Below, piece by piece: positions 1,538 to 37,481 of a DNA stretch of 38,200 nt. The stretch's first letter is position 1. Each line of letters opens with the position of its first letter. The position numbers were made by a program, and so were the translations under genes. This DNA comes from Escherichia phage sortregn: the sequence record MN850588.1, one strand, 5' to 3'. The notes under the pieces were generated by a model. The model ran no database searches. It worked only from the letters and a program-made list of their open reading frames with translations, and was not told the origin of the DNA.

Positions 1538-3580
1538 TTAAAAACCCTCATTCATGAATACTTTGTTAGTGATAACGTCTTTACCCTTGCCGATCTTCCG
1601 GTGGGTAACTTTCAGTGGGGCCATGAAGTACGGCGCGAAGGCGAGGACCTCCTGGGGCGTCCGTAGCTTCTTGATGTCGGCCCGTTTCTTTCCGTCCAGT
1701 ACGTGCTTAAGGATCCCATTGTGGAGCCATTCCTTTTTCGCCTGTGGGCTATCGCTACCGGGCCAGAATACTTGCCACGCCACGAACTGATCGCCGTCCT
1801 TCTCCAACTCGTACCGGAAGGCGATCCCCCCAGTCCCTCGCGCCAATTCCAGACGGAAGCCCCTCACGTTGTAGTAGTCGTCCCTGCTGTACGTGGTCCG
1901 GCTTAAGTTCTTGTTCGGATCTACGAGCGAGTTCCCGCAGCAGCGGCAGATCCTGGCTACGATGTCGTTTTGTGCGCCGCATCCCTTCTGTACCACCTTC
2001 CGCCCGCTGGAGTCCTTCCAGTCGTCGCAGGTGATGAACTGGAAAAAGTGTTCGCAGCGTTCGCCAGTGTCGGGATCGACGTAGCGGCAGCGTCGGGCGT
2101 GTTTGCCGTTTAGCGTCGGGTGGCCCGCCTTGCGACACTTCGGACAGTCTAACTCTAATTCTCCTTTGCTCTCGTCTGCGCTGTGCTGGTATGCCTCCAG
2201 CAGCGGGGAGAAATACAGGGATCCGAGTTCGTCAAGCGTCCCGGCATAGTCGAGGACCAGGTGATCCTCCTTCGTCACCCCGGCGGCGATGTGGAACGGC
2301 TTAAGGATGCGCATACCACGGCCTAAAAGCTGGGTTAGGAGCGTGAGGGATCCGATCTTCCGCAGTATCACGGACGTGTCCCAGAACGGGACGTTAACGC
2401 CAGTCGTTAGGGCGTTAACCTGGAATATAAATTTGATCTCCCCGGTATTGGCGCGGCGCAAAATGTCCATGCGCTTCTTGCCCGTCGTGTCGTCCGTGAT
2501 GATGGCGTAAGGCGTACCAGGGGGAAGGGCCTCCGCCGCCTGTTTGCAGTGTCTCACGCCCGCACACGTCACTAACACGCCGTTCCTGTGCTGGGCGATG
2601 GCGTATACCTCCGCCATGATCTCATGCGTGAGCTTTTTGTCCTTAAGGATCGCCTTTTGCATGGCGTCCATTTCGGCGTCCGTGAACTCCTTAATGCCAT
2701 CCTCGCCGGACGATCGCCACTGGTCGAGGTTGTAGTGGAGATTGGAGATCCCGAAGTGAGTCGGAACAACCGCGCCGACGCTTACCAGGTATTCCGTCGA
2801 GATCTCGCATACCTTCTTACGCCAAAATCCGGGCTGTTCGAGGTCTGGCTGGATGATGGACTCCACGCCACGGTATGGCGTCCCGGTGTAGCCAATAATG
2901 CGGAGTTCCTTCCCGTAGACCTCGCGGGCGCGTTGCTGGAATGTGCGGATAATGATCGTATAGCTGGAGCGACCCGCCTCGATCATCTCCTCGTAAGTCT
3001 CGCCCTTGTGCTCGCCGATAATGGTCGGCTCGTCGAAGCCGTCCAGGATGATCTCCCCGGTTTTCTCGTCCCGCAGGTACTCCGGGACCACGCGCTCCTG
3101 TGAGCGGATCAGGTCCTCAATGTTGACGTGATGGCATTCATCGATCAGCAGGAACAGCGGCGCGTAATGGGCGAGTGCCTGACCTGGGCGGAGTCCTCCG
3201 ATCACTGTACCCTCGGAGCCGACCACGATCGGGAAGTGTGCAGACTTGCGGCCCAGGCTGGCGCAGTAGATCGAGGAGTTCACGCCGAAGTTTTTCAACT
3301 CCTCGAAGTCCTGATCGATGATCTCCCCCTGGCGGGACAGGATCATGGCAGGGAAACCCATATCCCTGATCCGGCGGGCCAGCATGGAGATCATGATGGT
3401 TTTACCCGCACTCACGGCGGCGTCCACAATGACCGGGCCAGGATAGCGACGGATGGCCTCCGCGCAAGCCTCATACGCGACGAACTGGTGATCGTATGGT
3501 GTAACGGGCATATCTCCCAGGGCGCGGAGAATCGCGTCCCGGTCGAGCGCTTCGATCTGTTTCTCCAATGTCATTAACAT
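1538..3580 (-). CDS. SF2 (DEAD/DEAH-type) DNA helicase with C-terminal Zn-ribbon region
   Basis: 680 aa. Walker A VSAGKT, DECHH box, helicase C-terminal half, Cys-rich segment CPKCRK...CRYVD...CRCCGN. AAGGGA RBS. Confidence 0.9.
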   Translation of the reverse strand: MLMTLEKQIEALDRDAILRALGDMPVTPYDHQFVAYEACAEAIRRYPGPVIVDAAVSAGKTIMISMLARRIRDMGFPAMILSRQGEIIDQDFEELKNFGVNSSIYCASLGRKSAHFPIVVGSEGTVIGGLRPGQALAHYAPLFLLIDECHHVNIEDLIRSQERVVPEYLRDEKTGEIILDGFDEPTIIGEHKGETYEEMIEAGRSSYTIIIRTFQQRAREVYGKELRIIGYTGTPYRGVESIIQPDLEQPGFWRKKVCEISTEYLVSVGAVVPTHFGISNLHYNLDQWRSSGEDGIKEFTDAEMDAMQKAILKDKKLTHEIMAEVYAIAQHRNGVLVTCAGVRHCKQAAEALPPGTPYAIITDDTTGKKRMDILRRANTGEIKFIFQVNALTTGVNVPFWDTSVILRKIGSLTLLTQLLGRGMRILKPFHIAAGVTKEDHLVLDYAGTLDELGSLYFSPLLEAYQHSADESKGELELDCPKCRKAGHPTLNGKHARRCRYVDPDTGERCEHFFQFITCDDWKDSSGRKVVQKGCGAQNDIVARICRCCGNSLVDPNKNLSRTTYSRDDYYNVRGFRLELARGTGGIAFRYELEKDGDQFVAWQVFWPGSDSPQAKKEWLHNGILKHVLDGKKRADIKKLRTPQEVLAFAPYFMAPLKVTHRKIGKGKDVITNKVFMNEGF

Positions 3581-3590
3581 TGTTTATCCC

Positions 3591-3620
3591 TTGTAATATC
3601 ACTAAAGCATGATTTATAGT
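3591..3620 (+). promoter_or_regulatory. sigma70-like promoter candidate for the rightward early operon
   Basis: TTGTAA (3591-3596), 18-nt spacer, TATAGT (3615-3620), in the 65-nt divergent gap between the helicase and primase genes. Confidence 0.4.
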
Positions 3621-3645
3621 AACCGGGAAATAACCGGAGGGCAAT

Positions 3646-4464
3646 ATGGCGATCTACAAAAAAGAGGACGTTCTCGCGGCGATGCCCGGCAAATGGGAAC
3701 AGGCGCTCCTCGATCTTTGTGGCTGGGACCGCAAGGCGTTTAACGGCAATCATCAACCTTGCCCGATCTGTGGCGGGACGGACCGCTTTCGCTGGGGCCA
3801 TAAGCAACAGACGAAGAAGGCGGAGGGCTTCGGCTACTGTTCCGGCTCCTGTGGCGGCGCTCGTGATGGCATGTTTTGGTTCATGACCAGCCGATCGCAG
3901 CCGTTCAACGAGGCGATCAACGACCTGGGCGACTGGATAGGCGGACTCACCCCGGAGAAGCGGGAAACCATCGTCAAGGAGGCGCGGAAGTATGCCCGCC
4001 AGCAGGATAAGCCCGCGCAGGACTGGGAACTCACCCCGGAGGACGTGGACAAGATCATGAGCAAAGGCACGATGCGCGACGGATTCCTGTATGTTCCATG
4101 CGCTCGTCCACTGGGGGGATCCCTGGGGCCGTGGTGCAACGTGGCGAAGATCGGCTCCGACAGGTCCGTGGTGTTTGCCGCTGGTGGCCCGACGTGGGGC
4201 GCGGTAGGTCTGATCCACCCAGTGCCAGACGCTCCGGTGTATCTGGTGGCGGATCCGGTCCATGCGGTGAACGTGGCGGCGCGAGGGGAGGCGGAGGTCT
4301 GGCTTACGTTCCGGCCTATGAACGCGGTCCAGGCGTCGGCGATATATGACGGCGATCGGGAGATCCGGTTCGTCTACACTGACCCGGACGAGGTTTTCCT
4401 GTACGGCTACGAGAGGACGGGGAGGCCATGCGTCGGCGGGCATCTTGCCGGGGCGTTCGGGTAA
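3646..4464 (+). CDS. DNA primase-like protein (Zn-ribbon + Toprim-like)
   Basis: 272 aa. HQPCPICGGTDRFRW matches the primase-helicase zinc-binding motif (P4 alpha type). C-terminal VYLVADPVHAVNVAARGE is Toprim-like. GGAGGG RBS. Confidence 0.7.
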   Translation: MAIYKKEDVLAAMPGKWEQALLDLCGWDRKAFNGNHQPCPICGGTDRFRWGHKQQTKKAEGFGYCSGSCGGARDGMFWFMTSRSQPFNEAINDLGDWIGGLTPEKRETIVKEARKYARQQDKPAQDWELTPEDVDKIMSKGTMRDGFLYVPCARPLGGSLGPWCNVAKIGSDRSVVFAAGGPTWGAVGLIHPVPDAPVYLVADPVHAVNVAARGEAEVWLTFRPMNAVQASAIYDGDREIRFVYTDPDEVFLYGYERTGRPCVGGHLAGAFG

Positions 4465-4489
4465 AAAAAAAGGCCCCGCACGAGGGGCC
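4463..4489 (-). terminator. intrinsic-terminator-like hairpin oriented for leftward transcription
   Basis: A9 run (4463-4471), then GGCCCC-GCACGA-GGGGCC (4472-4489). On the minus strand this reads as a hairpin followed by a U9 run. There is no T-run on the plus side. Confidence 0.5.
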
Positions 4490-4542
4490 AGTGGGCGCGA
4501 CCGATACCAGCGGGCGCTAAAGCAATGGTGAACAGTCAACAA

Positions 4543-4560
4543 ATAGCACTTTTTGTTAAA
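4543..4560 (+). repeat. conserved element ATAGCACTTTTTGTTAAA (copy 1)
   Basis: 17/18 identical to 6855-6872. Both copies follow a terminator hairpin and precede CAATTATC (4577-4584) and the next gene. Confidence 0.6.
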
Positions 4561-4616
4561 ACACAAAACAGTTAATCAATTATCGTTAGTCACCACCAAC
4601 CAAAGAAGGGCAGCAG

Positions 4617-5258
4617 ATGAAAGACGAGAAAGACACCACCACGATCGATCATGTGGACGGCATGACCGAGGCGGAACGCGCAGCGGCAGACGTGACCACT
4701 GTTAGCGGTCGCCGCTTCAACAAATCCAAGACGCCGGACGCTATCCGCCAGAAGTGGCAGACCCCGCGCTGGCTGTTCGACTGGGCCGTGAAGCGCTTCG
4801 GGCAATTCGGGATCGATGTGGCAGCAGAAAAGGCTAACGCCCTTTGTGATGTCTACCTGGACGAGAAAACGGACGCCCTCAAGGATGGCGTGGAGTGGGG
4901 AGCCGAGGGCGGGCTGGCGTGGTGTAACCCGCCATACGCGGAGCCGCTTCCGTGGATCGTGAAGGCCATCCAGCAAGCGAAGGATCGCGACGTTACGACC
5001 GTGTTTCTCCTGAACTCCGACGCGTCTACGGCGTGGTTTAAGAAGGCGCTGGACGCCGGGAGCCTGGTTATCCATATCACCAGCGACGGCGAGAACTCCG
5101 GGCGCGTGGCGTTCGTGAAGGCCGGGACCGAAGTCGCGGGCAAGAAGAACAGCAAGCCGTCCGTAATGTTCGTTATCAAGCCGAAGAAGCGCGGACCGAT
5201 CAAGACTGAATATCTGACCCAGGCGGAGATGATGTTCGAAGGCAAAACGATGATTTAA
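4617..5258 (+). CDS. dam: DNA N6-adenine methyltransferase, small phage Dam family
   Basis: 213 aa. LAWCNPPY catalytic (D/N)PPY motif; size and layout of phage Dam enzymes (T1 / Stx-phage type). AAGAAGGG RBS. Confidence 0.85.
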   Translation: MKDEKDTTTIDHVDGMTEAERAAADVTTVSGRRFNKSKTPDAIRQKWQTPRWLFDWAVKRFGQFGIDVAAEKANALCDVYLDEKTDALKDGVEWGAEGGLAWCNPPYAEPLPWIVKAIQQAKDRDVTTVFLLNSDASTAWFKKALDAGSLVIHITSDGENSGRVAFVKAGTEVAGKKNSKPSVMFVIKPKKRGPIKTEYLTQAEMMFEGKTMI

Positions 5259-5274
5259 CCGAGAGGACCCAGAG

Positions 5275-5856
5275 ATGATTATTTATGCACCAGTAAGCGC
5301 CTTACGCGCTCACCAACTGACCAAAGGCCAGCAGGACGTCCGCTATTACCTGAACGCGATCCACTTCATCGGCAACCGGATCCGCACGTCTAACGGTCAT
5401 GTTTGCATGGAAAGCACCCATAAGCTCGTCAACGCGCCGGAGGAGGGGATCATCCTCTCAATCTCCACGCCACCGACTGGGCGGATCTTCTCCGCCGTGA
5501 TCGACACGGACGCCGGGATCGTGTACTGGCTGGACATTCCGGCAGATAAGCCGAAGGACCTCGAAGAAGTGGACCACAAAAAGGCCCGCGTCGCTGTGGG
5601 GACCGTGGACATTGTGGAGGCCAATTATCCGAACGTGGACGCACTCCTGAACAAGGCCCGCGAGAACTCGAAGGCCGTCCACGAGATCGGCGTGGCGACG
5701 CCTTACCTCGGAATGATCGAGAAGCTGGCGAAGAAGTTCGGGATCAAGATGCCTTTTGCGAAACTGAACTTTAACGGCGCAGCGGAGCCGATCCGCGTGA
5801 ACCTGACCACGCCGGACGGCGAGGCCACCCTGATCATTATGCCCGCGAGAGTGTAA
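5275..5856 (+). CDS. truncated DnaN (beta sliding clamp) homologue
   Basis: 193 aa. GQQDVRYYLNAIHF..RTSNGHVCM resembles the E. coli DnaN domain II start (..HQDVRYYLNGMLF..ATDGHRLAV..). ANYPNVDALL resembles GRFPDYRRVLP, and C-terminal ATLIIMPARV resembles AAYVVMPMRL. No domain I equivalent. GAGAGGA RBS. Confidence 0.6.
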   Translation: MIIYAPVSALRAHQLTKGQQDVRYYLNAIHFIGNRIRTSNGHVCMESTHKLVNAPEEGIILSISTPPTGRIFSAVIDTDAGIVYWLDIPADKPKDLEEVDHKKARVAVGTVDIVEANYPNVDALLNKARENSKAVHEIGVATPYLGMIEKLAKKFGIKMPFAKLNFNGAAEPIRVNLTTPDGEATLIIMPARV

Positions 5857-5858
5857 GC

Positions 5859-6083
5859 ATGGGACCTTATCAGACCTACCGCTGGAAATATTTCGTCCGT
5901 TGCGTGGCGGACGAACTCATGGATCGTAAACTGGTGGCCTCCCGCGAGGAGGCCGAGCACTTCGCCGAAGATCTGGAGGATTCGTTCGCGGAGGACTACG
6001 ACCCGCGTCCGATCTCAGAATGGCGAGCTATCGCGAAGAAAGACGCAGACGACTACGAGAAGGATCTGAAACGTGAAGCATAA
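5859..6083 (+). CDS. hypothetical acidic protein
   Basis: 74 aa ORF starting 3 nt after the upstream stop. Acidic (EDLEDSFAEDYD), no recognisable motif. Confidence 0.6.
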   Translation: MGPYQTYRWKYFVRCVADELMDRKLVASREEAEHFAEDLEDSFAEDYDPRPISEWRAIAKKDADDYEKDLKREA

Positions 6084-6825
6084 GGCGATCTTTTTATTCA
6101 ACCTGACCCGGATCATGGTGGACAAGTGGCTGGACGCTGGCGTGGAATGCTGGATGTATGACGGGCAGCACGAGCCAGGGATCCACCCAGACGCCGACGA
6201 GCCGAACCTGATCCGAGTGGGCCGGATGTTCGACGCGGACAACTCAATCAGGGAAGCGGCTCGCATCGCCGAGGAAGTCGGCCCCGGCGTGATCTTCGTG
6301 GCGTCCTTCGCTGAATGCACCGATCTAACCTGTACCGGGGCGCGATGGTGGGAAGCGAAGCGCAAGAAGGATCCGCGCTTCCAGGAGAAGGCCGTGGCGC
6401 TGGCTAAGATGGTGAAGCACGTCGCGGAATTTTGCAGCGTGGAGAACGGCAGCTTTGAACCCGCTTCGACGGTCCCCTGGATGCTGGAGAATCCGAAGAT
6501 CTCCCGACTCTCCACGATGTGGCGACCTTGCGATCACTGGTTCCACCCCTACAACTTCGGCGGCTACTTGCCGGAGGATCACCAGCATAGCCTCTACCCG
6601 GAGATCTACCCGGCGCGGGACGCGTACCCGAAGCAGACGGGGATCTGGTGCGGTGGCGGCTTCAAGATGCCGGAACACAAGAACGTCCCGGCGGTTAAGG
6701 ATAATCCCGGATGGTCGAAGCTGGGCGGATCTTCGACCCGAACGAAGAACATCCGCAGCGCCACCCCCGAAGGCTTCGCCGTCGCCGTGTTTATCTACAA
6801 CGCCACCCCGATCGCTCCATTCTGA
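6073..6825 (+). CDS. C5-cytosine-methyltransferase-like protein (divergent)
   Basis: 250 aa; GTG start overlaps the upstream stop (GAAGGA RBS). SFAECTDLTCTGARWW (cf. PPCT.L..SG.RW), WMLENP (ENV-like motif) and C-terminal RSATPEGFAVAV. This is the pattern of a phage family usually annotated DNA cytosine methylase. No canonical FxGxG. Confidence 0.5.
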   Translation: MKHKAIFLFNLTRIMVDKWLDAGVECWMYDGQHEPGIHPDADEPNLIRVGRMFDADNSIREAARIAEEVGPGVIFVASFAECTDLTCTGARWWEAKRKKDPRFQEKAVALAKMVKHVAEFCSVENGSFEPASTVPWMLENPKISRLSTMWRPCDHWFHPYNFGGYLPEDHQHSLYPEIYPARDAYPKQTGIWCGGGFKMPEHKNVPAVKDNPGWSKLGGSSTRTKNIRSATPEGFAVAVFIYNATPIAPF

Positions 6826-6828
6826 CAC

Positions 6829-6850
6829 AAGGCCCTCCGGGGCCTTTTTT
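6829..6850 (+). terminator. rho-independent terminator
   Basis: AAGGCCC-TCCG-GGGCCTT stem-loop followed by a T6 run, 4 nt after the stop of the methylase-like gene. Confidence 0.75.
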
Positions 6851-6854
6851 GCGT

Positions 6855-6872
6855 ATAGCACTTTTTGCTAAA
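6855..6872 (+). repeat. conserved element ATAGCACTTTTTGCTAAA (copy 2)
   Basis: 17/18 identical to 4543-4560. AGCACTTT recurs at 6872-6879 and CAATTATC at 6880-6887. Confidence 0.6.
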
Positions 6873-6927
6873 GCACTTTCAATTATCCTTTGTTATTATT
6901 CTTTCACACCAACACGAGGACGACGAA

Positions 6928-7152
6928 ATGAAACAGACTTTACTCCCGACCAAAACAAACAAGGCTCAACTGGTTAACCCGCTGTTACTGAAACAGGCGC
7001 ACATCCTGATCGAGGTGGCGATGATTCTCCGTAATCGCCTGAAAATGTACGCCGCCGGGCCAGCAGCTACAGCAGCTTTAAAGCGCGAGGCTCGCCAGGC
7101 AGAGGACGACGCTCGCGAACTGATCCGAGGCGCTTATGGTTATCGCCCGTAA
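6928..7152 (+). CDS. hypothetical protein
   Basis: ORF 6865-7152. ATG 6928 preferred (GAGGA RBS); the upstream part overlaps the conserved non-coding element. Confidence 0.6.
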   Translation: MKQTLLPTKTNKAQLVNPLLLKQAHILIEVAMILRNRLKMYAAGPAATAALKREARQAEDDARELIRGAYGYRP

Positions 7153-7411
7153 GACTTCGCGCCGGGAGTTATGGGAGGCGGCGCAAGCCGCCGAACTGGA
7201 CGGCATGATCAGCGCAGTCTCCCGCGTGTTCGGCAAGGAGGCGATCGCCGACATATCGATCGAGACGCCGGACGGCGAGATGTACCTGAACAACCCGGAC
7301 CCGCACCACTGGCGCGTCGTGCCTGGGACTAAAGGCGGAAAGAACGCTCTCAAAGACGCGATCGCCGACACCAAAAACCGGAAGCACCTCAAAGGGGGAT
7401 CTCGTGGGTAA
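7136..7411 (+). CDS. hypothetical protein
   Basis: 91 aa; GAGG 5 nt upstream of ATG; 17-nt overlap with the upstream gene. Confidence 0.6.
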   Translation: MVIARKTSRRELWEAAQAAELDGMISAVSRVFGKEAIADISIETPDGEMYLNNPDPHHWRVVPGTKGGKNALKDAIADTKNRKHLKGGSRG

Positions 7412-7796
7412 AGTAACAGCGAAGATTATCGGATGGACTGACGAGCAGGACGCGGAACTGGTTCGCCTGGCTGGAACCATGCCAGCGCCGGACCTGGCGA
7501 AGAAGATAAAACGCAACTTCCGCCAGATGCAGGTCCAGGCGTCGAAGCTGGGGATCTCCCTGGCGTACCGCAGGACGTACACGCAATGGACAGCGGAGGA
7601 GGACCGGAAGCTGGTCCGCTTCTGGGAGGATAAACTGACCCCGGAGGACGTGGTGGAGATCGCAGAGACTACGGGGATCTATGAAGTGACCCGCGACGAA
7701 CTGACACACGAGCACGTCGCGACCTGGCTCGACAAATCGCGCCCGGCAGTACGCGGACGCCTGGCAAAATTCAAGAAAGAGGGGAAAATAGCATGA
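7404..7796 (+). CDS. tandem Myb/SANT- or GcrA-like HTH DNA-binding protein
   Basis: 130 aa; GTG start with AAGGGGG RBS. Two repeats: WTDEQDAELVRLAG..LAKKIKRNFRQMQVQASKLGISL and WTAEEDRKLVRFWE..SRPAVRGRLAKF. The first resembles the GcrA N-terminus (WTDERV..L..LW..GLSASQIA..LGGVTRNAVIGKVHRLGLS) as recalled. Confidence 0.6.
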   Translation: MGKVTAKIIGWTDEQDAELVRLAGTMPAPDLAKKIKRNFRQMQVQASKLGISLAYRRTYTQWTAEEDRKLVRFWEDKLTPEDVVEIAETTGIYEVTRDELTHEHVATWLDKSRPAVRGRLAKFKKEGKIA

Positions 7797-7894
7797 CTGA
7801 CTTACGCGGAAGTAAATACGTTATATGGGGCGTAATCGCAGCCAGCGCCGCGCTGTGGGCTTTAATCGGTTTTGGCGTGTCGATGGTACTCTAA
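7793..7894 (+). CDS. small membrane protein (33 aa)
   Basis: Below the ORF-track cutoff. ATGA overlap with the upstream stop. MTDLRGSKYVIWGVIAASAALWALIGFGVSMVL has one TM helix. Followed by a terminator. Confidence 0.5.
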   Translation: MTDLRGSKYVIWGVIAASAALWALIGFGVSMVL

Positions 7895-7902
7895 AAAAAA
7901 GG

Positions 7903-7930
7903 GCCGCTTAAAAAGCGGCTCCTTTCGTTT
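7903..7930 (+). terminator. rho-independent terminator ending the rightward early operon
   Basis: GCCGCTT-AAA-AAGCGGC stem-loop followed by TCCTTTCGTTT, and preceded by an A8 run. Confidence 0.7.
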
Positions 7931-7990
7931 AAACGCCAGAGATGATCTACAATGCCCCGGCAGTATAACCAAACAAGAGAGGACCCGACA

Positions 7991-8788
7991 ATGGGGAATT
8001 TTTGGACCTACCACGAGAACACCCAGCGCGGCGGGATCGAACTGGGCCGAGTAATCGACCCGGCGAAAGCCTCGCGCCCGGTGATCTACCTAGAATCAGA
8101 TCCGCCAGGTCTGGACGCGGCGAAGGTTTCCGCCTTCATGCCGTACTACGTTTACACTCCGATGTCCTTCACTCAGGACTTGCCGGGAGTGGCTGGTGGC
8201 GATGCCGCCGCGACCTTCGTCCCTGGGGGGAGCACGTTCTCCGCGACGGTCGAAGTCGCCGGAGGTCAAGCGCCGTTTACTTATCAGTGGTACAAGTTTA
8301 GCGGCGGAGTCGGAACGGCGATCACGCTGGCGCAGAACGCCACGGCCCAGTCGAAGGTATTCCAGATCACCAACTACACCGCAGCGGCTCAACCCGGATC
8401 CGGTAACGGTGATTGGTATGTTGTCGTAACCGACGCGACCGGGGCCACGCTCCAGTCTCAGCGCATCCGCACGAAACAGGCGATCGCCTACTCCGTCAAC
8501 CTACCGACGACCGACACCTGGACCGTCGGGACCGCCGACGCCTTAACCGTCACCGTGAACGCGGCTACGGGCCTTGCGCCGTATACTCATGAATGGTTTA
8601 AGGATGGCGTTTCTCAGGGGCCGGGGACGTCGAGCGGGACGGGGAACGCGACCTCCACGCTATCGAAGGCAAGCCCGGCAGCGGGCGACGCTGGCGTGTA
8701 TTATTGCATTTCCACCAGCGCCAACACGAACCCGCCGAAAACCATCCAGAGCATTTCTTGCACTGTAACCGTTAACCCGGCAGCATAA
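7991..8788 (+). CDS. Ig-like domain protein (two I-set-like repeats)
   Basis: Start ATG 7991 preferred (AGAGAGGA RBS; the 7952 ATG has no RBS). Ig-like repeats ..APFTYQWYKF..GDWYVVVTDATG.. and ..APYTHEWFKDG..DAGVYYCISTS..CTVTV. Confidence 0.75.
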   Translation: MGNFWTYHENTQRGGIELGRVIDPAKASRPVIYLESDPPGLDAAKVSAFMPYYVYTPMSFTQDLPGVAGGDAAATFVPGGSTFSATVEVAGGQAPFTYQWYKFSGGVGTAITLAQNATAQSKVFQITNYTAAAQPGSGNGDWYVVVTDATGATLQSQRIRTKQAIAYSVNLPTTDTWTVGTADALTVTVNAATGLAPYTHEWFKDGVSQGPGTSSGTGNATSTLSKASPAAGDAGVYYCISTSANTNPPKTIQSISCTVTVNPAA

Positions 8789-19214: not shown

Positions 19215-21449
19215 ATGGCACGAGTTAAAAAATCGGTGCAGAACTGGCAGGAATGCGCCCGGAAGAAATTAAGCGCCGCGATCGGGGCGGAGGACACCAG
19301 CCGCAAGAAGATGATCGAAACGGCGCGATTTGTCCGCATTCCTGGCGCTCAGTGGGAAGGCTCCACGAACTCCGGCTTTGCGATGGATGATGAACGTTTC
19401 CAGAAATACCCGCGATTTGAGCTAAACAAGGTCGGGCGCGAGGTGGATCGCATCATTTCAGACTACCGCCTGAACCGCGTAAACGTCACGTTCCGCCCGA
19501 AGGACACCCAGGCCTCCGAAGAACTGGCGGACAAGCTGAACGGCAAGTTTCGCGCAGACTTCAACGAGTCGAACGGCTCCGAAGCCGTGGACAACACCTA
19601 CGAGGACGGCGTGACGGGCGGAATGGGCGCTTTCCGCATGGACACCGAACTGGAGGACGAGTTCGACCCGGACAACGAACAGCGTCACATTGTTTTTTAC
19701 CCGATCTATGATCCGGCCTCGTGCCTGTTTATCGATCAGGACTCCAAGATGTACGATCGCAGTGATGCTATGTGGATGGCGGAGCTATTCAGCATGACCC
19801 CGGACAAGTACGAGGAGCGCTATCCCGACGCCCTCGCCCCGGAGGACCTGATGGCGATCGATACCGGGAAACAATTCGACTGGGCCACGAAGGACGCGAT
19901 CTATCTGGCGCGTTACTACGAGGTGAAGATCGAGGACACCACCGTGATCTCCTACAAGAACCCGTTAACCGGGGAGGTGGAGGTCTACGACGAGGACGAG
20001 ATCGAGCAGATCGAGGACGAACTGGAGGCCGGAGGCTGGGAACGCCAGAAGGATCGCAAGGTCAAGCGCCGCAAGGTCTATTGCGGACTTATGACTGGTG
20101 GCGAATGGCTGGAGGAGCCGAAGCTGATCCCGTTCGAGTGGATCCCGATCTTCGTGTTCAACGCCCGCCGCTCGTTCATCGACAACATGGAACGCGTAAG
20201 CGGTCACGCGACCCAGGCCCTCGACGCGCAACGTCTGGAAAACCTGATCGTGTCCATGATGGCGGACCAGGCCGCGCAGTCTGGCGGCGATAACATCCCG
20301 ATCATGGACATTGATATGATTCCCGGAGCGCTGGCTGACGCCTGGGGGGAACGTAACACGAAGCGCCCGGCATACTTGCCCGCTAAATCGCTCCGTAACG
20401 CCGCTGGTGAGGTTGTGCAGCAAGCCGGGCCACTGGGTTACACGCCATCGACGCCGCTCTCTCCGGCGCTGGCAGCGGTCCTACAGTACACCGGGAGCAC
20501 TATCCAGCAGATCGTCGGCTCGTCCCAGGTGGAGGCGTTACCGTCGAACCTGGCGACCGAAACCGTGGAGGCCATTTTCGCCCGTATGGACGGACAGGGC
20601 GCTCTCTACATGGACAACCTGGGGAAAACGCTCCGCCACTGTGGGCGCGTGTACCTCAGCGCGGCCCGCAAGGTCTACGGCTCGGAGAATTACGTCCGCG
20701 TGAAGAACGAGGACGGGACCGACGATCTCGTGTTAATGACCGGGAAAGTGATCGATCGTGACACGGACGAGGCGATCGCGATTAACGACCTCAAGCGCGG
20801 GAAATATGAGGTCGAGGCCGACGTGGGCGAGTCCTCCCAGACGAAGCGCGTCGCAACCGTTCGCAGCCTGACGAATCTCCTCCAGTCCATGCAGCCTGGC
20901 GACCCGAACGCCGCCGTAGTGATGGGCCTGATCATCATGAACATGGACGGCGAAGGCTTGCAGGACTTCAAGGAATACAGCCGCCGCCAGCTTCTCCTGA
21001 ATGGCATCGTGAAGCCGCAGACGGACGAGGAGAAAGCGATGGTAGCCGAGGCCCAGCAAGCCGCCCAGCAGCAGCCGGACGCGCAGATGGTAGCCGCTCA
21101 GGGCGTAGCGCAGCAGGGACAGGCCGCAGTGATGGAGCAGGAGAACAAGCGTTTAGAACTGACGCTCAAGGCGCAGAGCACCGCGTCCGACGGTCAACTG
21201 AAAAACGCGCAGACGGTCAAGACGATGGCAGAGGCGGCGGCAATCCCGCAGGATCAGCTATTGAGCGCGATCGCCGTTCTCCAGAAGTACGTCTCCCAGC
21301 AGAACAGCGACGCCCACAAACAGGCGGATCTGTTCCTCAAGGCTCAGGGACAGGGCCACACCCAGCGCGAGGACCAGATGGCCCGCGAGATGGCAGAGCG
21401 CCAGGCATCGCAGAGCGCCGATCGTCAACTGGGATTAGCTGGCCTGTAA
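19215..21449 (+). CDS. portal protein, P22 gp1-like
   Basis: 744 aa, collinear with P22 gp1 as recalled: ARYYEVKIEDTTVISYKNPLTGEVEVY vs [28 protein letters not shown], and KVKRRKVY vs QIKRRRVY. C-terminal Q/A-rich barrel AEAQQAAQQQPDAQMVAAQGVAQQGQAA. Confidence 0.95.
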   Translation: MARVKKSVQNWQECARKKLSAAIGAEDTSRKKMIETARFVRIPGAQWEGSTNSGFAMDDERFQKYPRFELNKVGREVDRIISDYRLNRVNVTFRPKDTQASEELADKLNGKFRADFNESNGSEAVDNTYEDGVTGGMGAFRMDTELEDEFDPDNEQRHIVFYPIYDPASCLFIDQDSKMYDRSDAMWMAELFSMTPDKYEERYPDALAPEDLMAIDTGKQFDWATKDAIYLARYYEVKIEDTTVISYKNPLTGEVEVYDEDEIEQIEDELEAGGWERQKDRKVKRRKVYCGLMTGGEWLEEPKLIPFEWIPIFVFNARRSFIDNMERVSGHATQALDAQRLENLIVSMMADQAAQSGGDNIPIMDIDMIPGALADAWGERNTKRPAYLPAKSLRNAAGEVVQQAGPLGYTPSTPLSPALAAVLQYTGSTIQQIVGSSQVEALPSNLATETVEAIFARMDGQGALYMDNLGKTLRHCGRVYLSAARKVYGSENYVRVKNEDGTDDLVLMTGKVIDRDTDEAIAINDLKRGKYEVEADVGESSQTKRVATVRSLTNLLQSMQPGDPNAAVVMGLIIMNMDGEGLQDFKEYSRRQLLLNGIVKPQTDEEKAMVAEAQQAAQQQPDAQMVAAQGVAQQGQAAVMEQENKRLELTLKAQSTASDGQLKNAQTVKTMAEAAAIPQDQLLSAIAVLQKYVSQQNSDAHKQADLFLKAQGQGHTQREDQMAREMAERQASQSADRQLGLAGL

Positions 21450-21765: not shown

Positions 21766-21932
21766 AACGCTACAAATGCACCGTAGGCGACAAGCGCGGG
21801 GCGTTCGGCGACTGTATGGAGCAGGACAAGGACGGGGACTGGATGCGCGTCTCCGACCATAATCGACACATTCAGGCACTGGAGCGCCAGATCGCGGCGC
21901 TAAAGGCCAAAACCAGAGAGACGAAACAATGA
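21762..21932 (+). CDS. hypothetical protein (insert gene 2, 56 aa)
   Basis: Below the ORF-track cutoff. GTGA overlap with the upstream stop and ATGA overlap with the downstream start. MKRYKCTVGDKRGAFGDCMEQDKDGDWMRVSDHNRHIQALERQIAALKAKTRETKQ. Confidence 0.5.
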   Translation: MKRYKCTVGDKRGAFGDCMEQDKDGDWMRVSDHNRHIQALERQIAALKAKTRETKQ

Positions 21933-22297
21933 AAACGACCTACAACCTCGACCAGATGGCCCTCTTTTCTGCGATCGCCGCAGCGGTAGGAAAACAGGCG
22001 CCAGGGCTTCCGGCGGATAACCGCGCTAACGTGGTGATCGAGGCCGCAAACATGATCGTAGCGGCCTATGCGCTGACCGATGCCGAATACATGGCGAAGA
22101 AGGCAGAAGCGCCGATCGCCGTTGACCTCCAGCCGACGGCGGAACAGGTGGAGGCCGGGATCGCCTCGCTGTGGGACACCATCCCCGGCGCGATGGATCA
22201 GCTATGCCAGGACGTGGCAGAGGAGGAGCAGGGCGATCTATTCTCCGACGCTGTTACTTTCGTGTGGCAAGCCATGATCGGGAAGCGTCCACAATGA
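21929..22297 (+). CDS. hypothetical protein (insert gene 3)
   Basis: 122 aa, Ala-rich and acidic, translationally coupled on both sides. Confidence 0.6.
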   Translation: MKTTYNLDQMALFSAIAAAVGKQAPGLPADNRANVVIEAANMIVAAYALTDAEYMAKKAEAPIAVDLQPTAEQVEAGIASLWDTIPGAMDQLCQDVAEEEQGDLFSDAVTFVWQAMIGKRPQ

Positions 22298-36935: not shown

Positions 36936-37481
36936 TTAAAACGGAATATCATCGTCGAAATCTTGAGGCGGCTCGTTAGACGCTCCAGAAGCGCCACCAC
37001 GAGGCGCAGACCCAGACCCGCTACCCTTGCCAGGATTTTGCGAGTTCGTCGCGCCACGGCCCGGAGAATTGCGAGAATTGCCACCGCCGCCGGAGTGGGT
37101 AGGTCCACTCCCCCCAGACTGACCGCCTTCACGCTTCCCGCCTAACATTTGCATCGTGCCGCCGACGTTCACGACGACCTCCGTCGTGTACTTCTCGACG
37201 CCTTGCTGGTCCGTCCATTTGCGCGTCTGGAGCTTGCCTTCGATGTAGACCTGGGACCCCTTGCGGAGATACTCTCCGGCGACCTCCGCCAGCTTGCCCC
37301 ACAAAACGACGCGATGCCATTCCGTGATCTCCTTCATCTCGCCCGTTTGCTTATCGCGCCAGGACTCGGAGGTGGCTACGGTGATATTTGCCACCGCGCC
37401 GCCGTTCGGCATGTATTTTACTTCGGGATCCTGGCCCAGATTGCCGACCAGAATCACCTTATTAACGCCGCGTGATGCCAT
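36936..37481 (-). CDS. ssb: single-stranded DNA-binding protein
   Basis: 181 aa. [22 protein letters not shown] fold, Gly-rich linker, acidic tip DFDDDIPF. Confidence 0.97.

Follow-up and report, generated by a model that had tools for sequence, protein, structure and literature searches.

The beta sliding clamp of E. coli, DnaN (PDB 1MMI, 2POL), is an acidic protein of 366 aa and three domains. Its head-to-tail dimer interface is made up of Ile272, Leu273 and Glu298-304 on the domain III side, and of Ile78, Phe106, Lys74 and Arg96/103/105 on the domain I side (review PMC11139829). The same review defines an 18-residue pocket for clamp-binding motifs with two subsites. Subsite I comprises R152, L155, T172, G174, H175, R176, L177, P242, R246, V247, V360 and M362, and subsite II comprises H175, N320, Y323, V344, M362, P363, M364 and R365 (PMC11139829). 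The monomeric mutant I272A/L273A forms no ring and still presents this pocket, and binds the clamp-loader protein delta ~50 times tighter than the dimer does (PMC11139829).

Clamp folds without a closed ring are also found in the herpesvirus processivity factors UL42 (a monomer) and UL44 (a C-shaped dimer), which bind a polymerase peptide at the pocket-equivalent site and hold DNA by a basic surface. In phages, full-length DnaN homologues of ~380 aa include gp28 of Burkholderia phage KL1 and ORF027 of Pseudomonas phage 73, both of which have three domains and presumably form rings. Some phage PolIII-beta homologues occur without a phage polymerase, and their role has been queried (Kazlauskas et al. 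2016, PMC4889955). The protein described here is likewise a phage-borne PolIII-beta relative, but it belongs to a family of 1.5-domain proteins of about 170-215 aa. In the literature we found neither a functional or experimental study of this half-size family nor a description of a 1.5-domain, pocket-only architecture.

The gene lies in Escherichia phage sortregn (MN850588.1), a Murrayvirus of 38,200 bp that is 97.3% similar to Salmonella phage Lumpael (PMC7552041). This whole stretch is referred to below as the window, and the features discussed are collected in Table 1.

Table 1. Features of the half-clamp gene and its surroundings in the sortregn window (positions from the first letter of the window)
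Feature	Position	Strand	Remarks
Probable operon	3591..6856	+	From ORFs, Pfam, consensus promoter and terminator scans
Promoter-like site	3591-3620	+	Consensus promoter scan
Primase	3646-4464	+	Pfam Zn_Ribbon_Prim
Dam methyltransferase	4617-5258	+	Pfam Dam
Shine-Dalgarno-like GAGAGGA	5261..5267	+	7 nt upstream of the half-clamp ATG; read from sequence
Half-size beta-clamp homologue gene	5275..5856	+	193 aa; ATG at 5275, stop 5854-5856 included
Domain II-like module, residues 1-126	5275..5652	+	Aligns to E. coli beta ~136-250
QDVRYYLN, aa 20-27	5332..5355	+	Identical to beta 149-156; holds pocket R152 and L155
SNGHVC, aa 39-44	5389..5406	+	Against TDGHRL 172-177; strand of pocket subsite I
NYPNV, aa 117-121	5623..5637	+	Against RFPDY 240-244; holds pocket P242
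Half domain III, residues 131-193	5665..5853	+	Against E. coli 316-366; one helix, three strands, end IIMPARV
74-aa acidic ORF	5859-6083	+	Directly after the half-clamp gene; no Pfam match
Dcm-like methyltransferase	6073-6825	+	Annotation of relatives only (Dcm or C5 cytosine methyltransferase); no Pfam match at E up to 0.001
Terminator-like hairpin	6829-6846	+	Consensus terminator scan; ends the operon
Phage SSB	36936..37481	-	Pfam SSB, 4.7e-41; C-terminus DFDDDIPF (translation)

Identification of a half-size clamp homologue

As a single sequence, the 193-aa protein has no match in Pfam (E up to 10), NCBIfam or PDB. It matches PHROG 3007 from end to end (E 1.6e-44), with residues 1-193 aligned to profile positions 1-186 of 190. 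A profile built from 23 close homologues matches beta sliding clamps in PDB at E 8e-6, and a profile built from 105 diverse relatives matches E. coli beta at E 6e-24. Almost a third of these relatives (31/105) match Pfam DNA_pol3_beta_2 and no other DnaN Pfam domain, while the TIGR00663 scores of four relatives are 24-59 bits against a cutoff of 137.65. The half-clamp itself falls below the thresholds of TIGR00663 and of Pfam (DNA_pol3_beta, _beta_2 and _beta_3), and lacks the three-domain architecture of ~366 aa. The AF2 monomer model has a pLDDT of 82 with a shallow alignment, and a pLDDT of 95.6 and a pTM of 0.90 with a deep one; the model is compact.

Every significant sequence and structure match of the protein is a sliding clamp, so that the clamp fold assumed in the original prediction is borne out by both profile and structure comparison. 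Four segments which that prediction had likened to DnaN are also recovered in an HMM alignment with the E. coli reference sequence (taken from NC_000913). QDVRYYLN is identical at 8/8 positions, and the NGH/DGH strand, the NYPN/FPDY-like segment and the C-terminal ending (IIMPARV, aa 187-193, against VVMPMRL, 360-366) align as expected (Table 1). Because the profile matches, the AF2 models and the aligned motifs agree, the clamp homology is confirmed, and the protein is established as a genuine half-size DnaN homologue with a clamp fold. The gene is under purifying selection (dN/dS ~0.1 against Enterobacteria phage IME_EC2), and is kept in relatives down to 35% amino-acid identity.

Retained and missing segments of the clamp

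The family profile was split in two parts and each was scored against E. coli DnaN. The N-terminal HMM matches DnaN 136-250, which is domain II, with 56 bits (2e-19). The HMM of the C-terminal 63 aa matches DnaN 316-366 with 21.7 bits (E 8e-9), and reaches only -0.3 bits against DnaN 275-302. The half-clamp is made up of domain II and of domain III from E. coli 316 to 366, its C-terminal half. Nothing in it aligns to DnaN domain I, and the domain III equivalent is ~46 residues shorter, both much as predicted; the piece missing from domain III is its N-terminal half, with residues ~254-312 uncovered. The retained half carries pocket positions Y323, M362, P363 and R365.

A further difference from DnaN lies within domain II. 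In the AF2 model there is no helix between the strands at 59-63 and 73-77, where a Pro-containing loop (aa 64-72) is found instead. The missing helix corresponds to the second channel-lining helix of domain II in beta. Pro67, at the position of E202, is conserved in 82% of the family.

Compared with DnaN, the half-clamp therefore lacks domain I, the first half of domain III, one inner helix and either side of the head-to-tail dimer interface, since both sides fall in the absent segments. The original prediction had the dimer-interface region kept, which is incorrect: I272, L273 and E298-304 belong to the part of domain III that is deleted, its first half. As judged from the alignment and the model, the missing interfaces and the lost inner helix would speak against a closed ring around DNA. 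The I272A/L273A mutant is an engineered, full-length protein, whereas the phage family would lose the ring by deletion of the interface-bearing segments; as proposed here for the half-clamp, the mutant has no ring and still presents its pocket. The charge differs as well, E. coli beta being acidic (pI 5.25) and the sortregn protein near neutral (pI 7.9; family median 8.4).

Conservation of the clamp-binding-motif pocket

The conservation of 105 family members was mapped onto E. coli beta numbering. Columns conserved in at least 60% of members make up 11/18 pocket positions, compared with 24/142 of the other aligned positions (Fisher p 1.4e-4), and the median identity to E. coli beta is 67% in the pocket and 19% elsewhere. 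R152, L155, G174, H175, P242, Y323, M362 and P363 are each conserved in at least 91% of members. Individual values include 99% for R152, 95% for L155, 105/105 for G174, 99/105 for H175, 103/105 for P242 and 95/105 for T172, which is a serine in the sortregn protein.

The sortregn half-clamp is identical to beta at 9/18 pocket positions (R23, L26, G41, H42, P119, Y144, M189, P190 and R192) and at 16.5% of positions elsewhere, with conservative pocket substitutions at S39, L124 and I187. One E. coli prophage member keeps 15/18 pocket residues, as counted from its sequence. The pocket of the Murrayvirus clade is the most derived, with R176V, L177C, R246A, N320A and M364A, and may for that reason bind a different range of ligands from host beta.

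On these sequence grounds, the clamp-binding-motif pocket appears to be kept in the half-clamp family. The pocket residues are also the most conserved ones in true clamps, and their conservation could partly reflect fold stability or the manner in which the family was detected. In the clamp topology, the pocket of beta sits at the boundary of domains II and III, bordered by the strands that follow helix 1 of domain II and by the final three strands of domain III. The two retained pieces flank this boundary and so look like a minimal set for building the pocket. From this topology, we infer that together they would form a hydrophobic pocket for motifs of the QLxLF or QxxLxF type. The earlier suggestion that the protein could dock host Pol III or other clamp-binding proteins would fit a pocket with this pattern of conservation.

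Distribution and annotation of the family

The half-clamp is a member of a large, size-conserved phage and prophage family, and not a one-off truncation. An exhaustive profile search returned 698 clusters (50% identity) at E <=1e-3. Nearly all of the 150 clusters listed are 165-215 aa in length, the exceptions being a few fragments and some slightly longer members. The longer members P0283, P0212, P0140, P0138 and P0076 were considered as domain fusions and rejected, since they contain no informative fusion and look like read-through or start-site artefacts or short extensions. By tblastn, the family is present in 217 phage records. BFVD holds the identical protein and many viral look-alikes of 160-250 aa from phages of Pantoea, Serratia, Burkholderia, Rhodococcus, Xanthomonas and Bacillus. 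Protein searches also found prophage copies in E. coli, Yersinia, Serratia, Atlantibacter, Dickeya and Arsenophonus, although no copy was found in E. coli genomes by blastn with a lambdoid metagenome copy as query. A locus search with a single lambdoid member as query gave 3 weak loci only.

The similarity to clamps is already known, in that GenBank carries the annotation 'putative beta-clamp'. Names given by depositors are 'putative beta-clamp protein', 'DNA polymerase III beta subunit', 'beta clamp domain protein' and 'hypothetical protein', and some relatives are annotated as 'processivity factor'. In RefSeq and PHROG 3007 the family is labelled 'RusA-like Holliday junction resolvase' (e.g. 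Lumpael NC_048113 14621-15202).

Genomic context in sortregn

Positions 4000-8000 of the window are 98.8% identical to Lumpael and ~89% identical to IME_EC2, both of which are Murrayvirus. The half-clamp gene lies within a probable operon between the Dam and Dcm-like methyltransferase genes, and the gene order of this operon recurs in IME_EC2, Sortsne and C130_2. An ORF similar to the 74-aa acidic ORF occupies the same place in C130_2 (locus L019, 4096-4311) and is absent in Sortsne. Long ORFs of 160-330 aa run antisense to the primase, Dam and Dcm-like genes and overlap them (3574-4566, 4590-5075 and 6325-6861 on the minus strand, and similar ones). Rather than genes, these are probably a by-product of the high G+C content (~59%).

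The original prediction placed the gene in a phage without a polymerase gene. In agreement with this, no Pfam polymerase domain is found in 20 ORFs scanned, including all those of the replication region; for the remaining large ORFs the statement is drawn solely from the annotation of relatives, and no polymerase is annotated in the near-identical Lumpael or the related Sortsne genome. Nor does a clamp loader gene accompany the half-clamp, according to the Pfam-scanned ORFs and the annotation of relatives. The replication and recombination genes of sortregn encode a primase, an AAA_25 helicase-like protein, a DEAD-box helicase, a VRR-NUC nuclease, Erf and an SSB. The C-terminus of the SSB, DFDDDIPF, matches the tip with which E. 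coli SSB docks its partner proteins. The phage appears to copy, besides the clamp pocket, this second hub of the host replisome.

Genomic context in other phages and prophages

In P22-like and lambda-like prophages, the half-clamp is the first gene after cII and is followed by the genes for the initiator and the DnaB-like helicase. It falls between lambda P and a D12 methyltransferase gene in another lambdoid contig, and comes after N in an Arsenophonus prophage. These positions mark it as an early gene associated with replication. Lambdoid prophages depend on host Pol III. Early placements of this kind are seen at loci L020 (3501-4037), L022-L024 (8001-8537), L010 (1307-1933) and L025 (8001-8525).

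A different arrangement is found in Dhillonvirus, which encodes its own PolA. Here the half-clamp is a lone gene or part of a mini-operon on the opposite strand, inside head or tail gene clusters. Opposite-strand placement is also found in Skatevirus, ZCKp20p-like phages, Gorganvirus and one metagenomic siphovirus. The opposite-strand loci are L006 (6971-7489), L005 (6974-7510), L004 (6974-7510), L021 (3501-3998) and L012 (7001-7624). This lone placement, seen in several lytic siphoviruses, resembles that of an accessory gene with its own transcription. Phages both with and without their own polymerase carry the family, and the PolA-bearing phages together with the isolated placement argue against recruitment of host Pol III as its only role.

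Clamp-binding-type motifs in phage proteins

Scans of phage proteins revealed no conserved clamp-binding-type motif in a phage partner, the matches being at chance level or confined to certain lineages. In sortregn, clamp-binding-like strings are present near the C-terminus of Dam (QAEMMF, aa 202-207) and of the portal protein (19215-21449; QADLF, aa 703-707), and at the N-terminus of a 122-aa ORF (21929-22297; QMALF, aa 9-13). The primase contains a match of this type, QALLDL. The Dam and portal strings are preserved in Sortsne, where the Dam string reads QAEMIF, and the Dam motif is lost in C130_2, which reads KQDMLD. By our own estimate, the number of matches in the proteome is about that expected by chance. 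With a count at this level and the loss in C130_2, the Dam, portal, ORF and primase motifs were rejected as evidence for a phage partner.

In Hafnia phage yong1, the CII protein (L020, 3184-3483), encoded directly upstream of the half-clamp, ends in QVTMNF and fits the hexameric clamp-binding consensus. It was rejected as a general link, as the CII proteins of E. coli prophages have no such ending.

Possible functions

The reading we favour, to which we assign a probability of about 0.5, is that the half-clamp is a stand-alone receptor for clamp-binding motifs that forms no canonical ring, with its preferred role being that of an adaptor or tether for host Pol III. The protein, probably monomeric, would be an early product, expressed alongside the phage primase and methyltransferases. 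In a phage lacking a polymerase, it would capture host Pol III or the clamp loader for replication of phage DNA. The neutral-to-basic charge of the family may help through direct contact with DNA, as in UL42. Given the basic pI of the family, UL42 and UL44 offer a possible working analogy for a clamp fold that would act in this way.

The main rival, which we regard as unlikely on balance, uses the same pocket for the opposite effect. As a decoy, the half-clamp would titrate clients off the host clamp, with clamp-loader delta, Hda, MutS/MutL and the translesion polymerases Pol II, IV and V as candidates. Host replication control, mismatch repair or damage tolerance would be disturbed to the benefit of the phage. 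Such a role is consistent with a conserved pocket from which the ring-forming parts are gone, and with the tight binding of delta by monomeric beta, ~50-fold that of the dimer (PMC11139829). The occurrence of the family in polymerase-bearing phages, and as stand-alone accessory genes outside replication modules, would suit a general host-manipulation factor; its presence in polymerase-bearing phages would be better explained by a decoy than by an adaptor. These phages also carry recombination genes of the Erf/ExoVIII or RecT type. Recombination of this type would gain from weakened mismatch repair. However, indiscriminate titration would starve a polymerase-less phage of Pol III and the clamp loader, so that a decoy would need to be selective in its clients.

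An unconventional processivity factor, assembled from several copies around DNA, is improbable. The clamp fold and the 'processivity factor' annotation of some relatives point in this direction, and geometry would allow it: each chain has three beta-alpha-beta-beta-beta units, so that a tetramer of 1.5-domain chains would reach the canonical 12 repeat units, and a half-domain could in principle pair with that of another copy to form a dimer. Against such assemblies stand the absence of both canonical interface regions, the replacement of one channel-lining helix by a conserved Pro-containing loop, the compact and very confident monomer model (pTM 0.90), and the lack of an accompanying clamp loader or polymerase gene in sortregn.

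More doubtful still is a pocket devoted to a phage-encoded partner, for instance in tethering the flanking methyltransferases or the primase to replicating DNA, for which PCNA and DNMT1 offer an analogy. In Murrayvirus, Sortsnevirus and Hungariovirus the half-clamp gene is flanked by Dam and Dcm-like genes, and in an unrelated lambdoid contig it is two genes from a D12-class methyltransferase. Adjacency to a methyltransferase is in this way found in two independent backbones, but most other lineages have no methyltransferase adjoining the half-clamp. The C-terminal Dam string shared by sortregn and Sortsne would provide a docking motif for such a partner, although it is gone in C130_2, is part of the Pfam Dam domain and not of a free tail, and belongs to a set of proteome matches of about chance size.

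The two remaining readings are progressively less likely. Capping or poisoning of host beta monomers through a retained dimer interface, as raised in the original prediction, is very improbable: general DnaN homology is what speaks for it, while the domain III residues I272, L273 and E298-304 are in the deleted half and the complementary residues are in the absent domain I, so that canonical capping has no structural basis. The database reading of the family as RusA-like Holliday junction resolvases, which goes back to the label of PHROG 3007 and to the RefSeq product names taken from that label, is refuted by the fold and profile comparisons and can be given practically no credence, since there is no match to Pfam RusA (PF05866) even at E up to 10, the significant sequence and structure matches are all to sliding clamps, and E. 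coli prophages carry a separate true RusA gene (PF05866) in the same locus.

Implications

The RusA label looks like a misannotation that has been propagated, and it is flagged here across many phage records. For the stand-alone PolIII-beta homologues, one large family can now be described in which the partner-docking pocket appears kept and the ring dropped, and the question raised by Kazlauskas et al. (2016) is narrowed to peptide binding, pocket mutants and host clients. Tentatively, such widespread, monomeric, pocket-only clamp derivatives may hijack the host clamp network, either by recruitment of Pol III and the clamp loader or by selective titration of clients such as Hda or those of mismatch repair or translesion synthesis. 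If true, this would be a previously undescribed takeover of the host replisome, paired in sortregn with an SSB that copies the host tip. If this is borne out, the half-clamps would amount to naturally occurring, soluble competitors or adaptors for the pocket of the bacterial clamp, and because this pocket is an active antibiotic target, the family could serve as a tool for probing clamp-client traffic.
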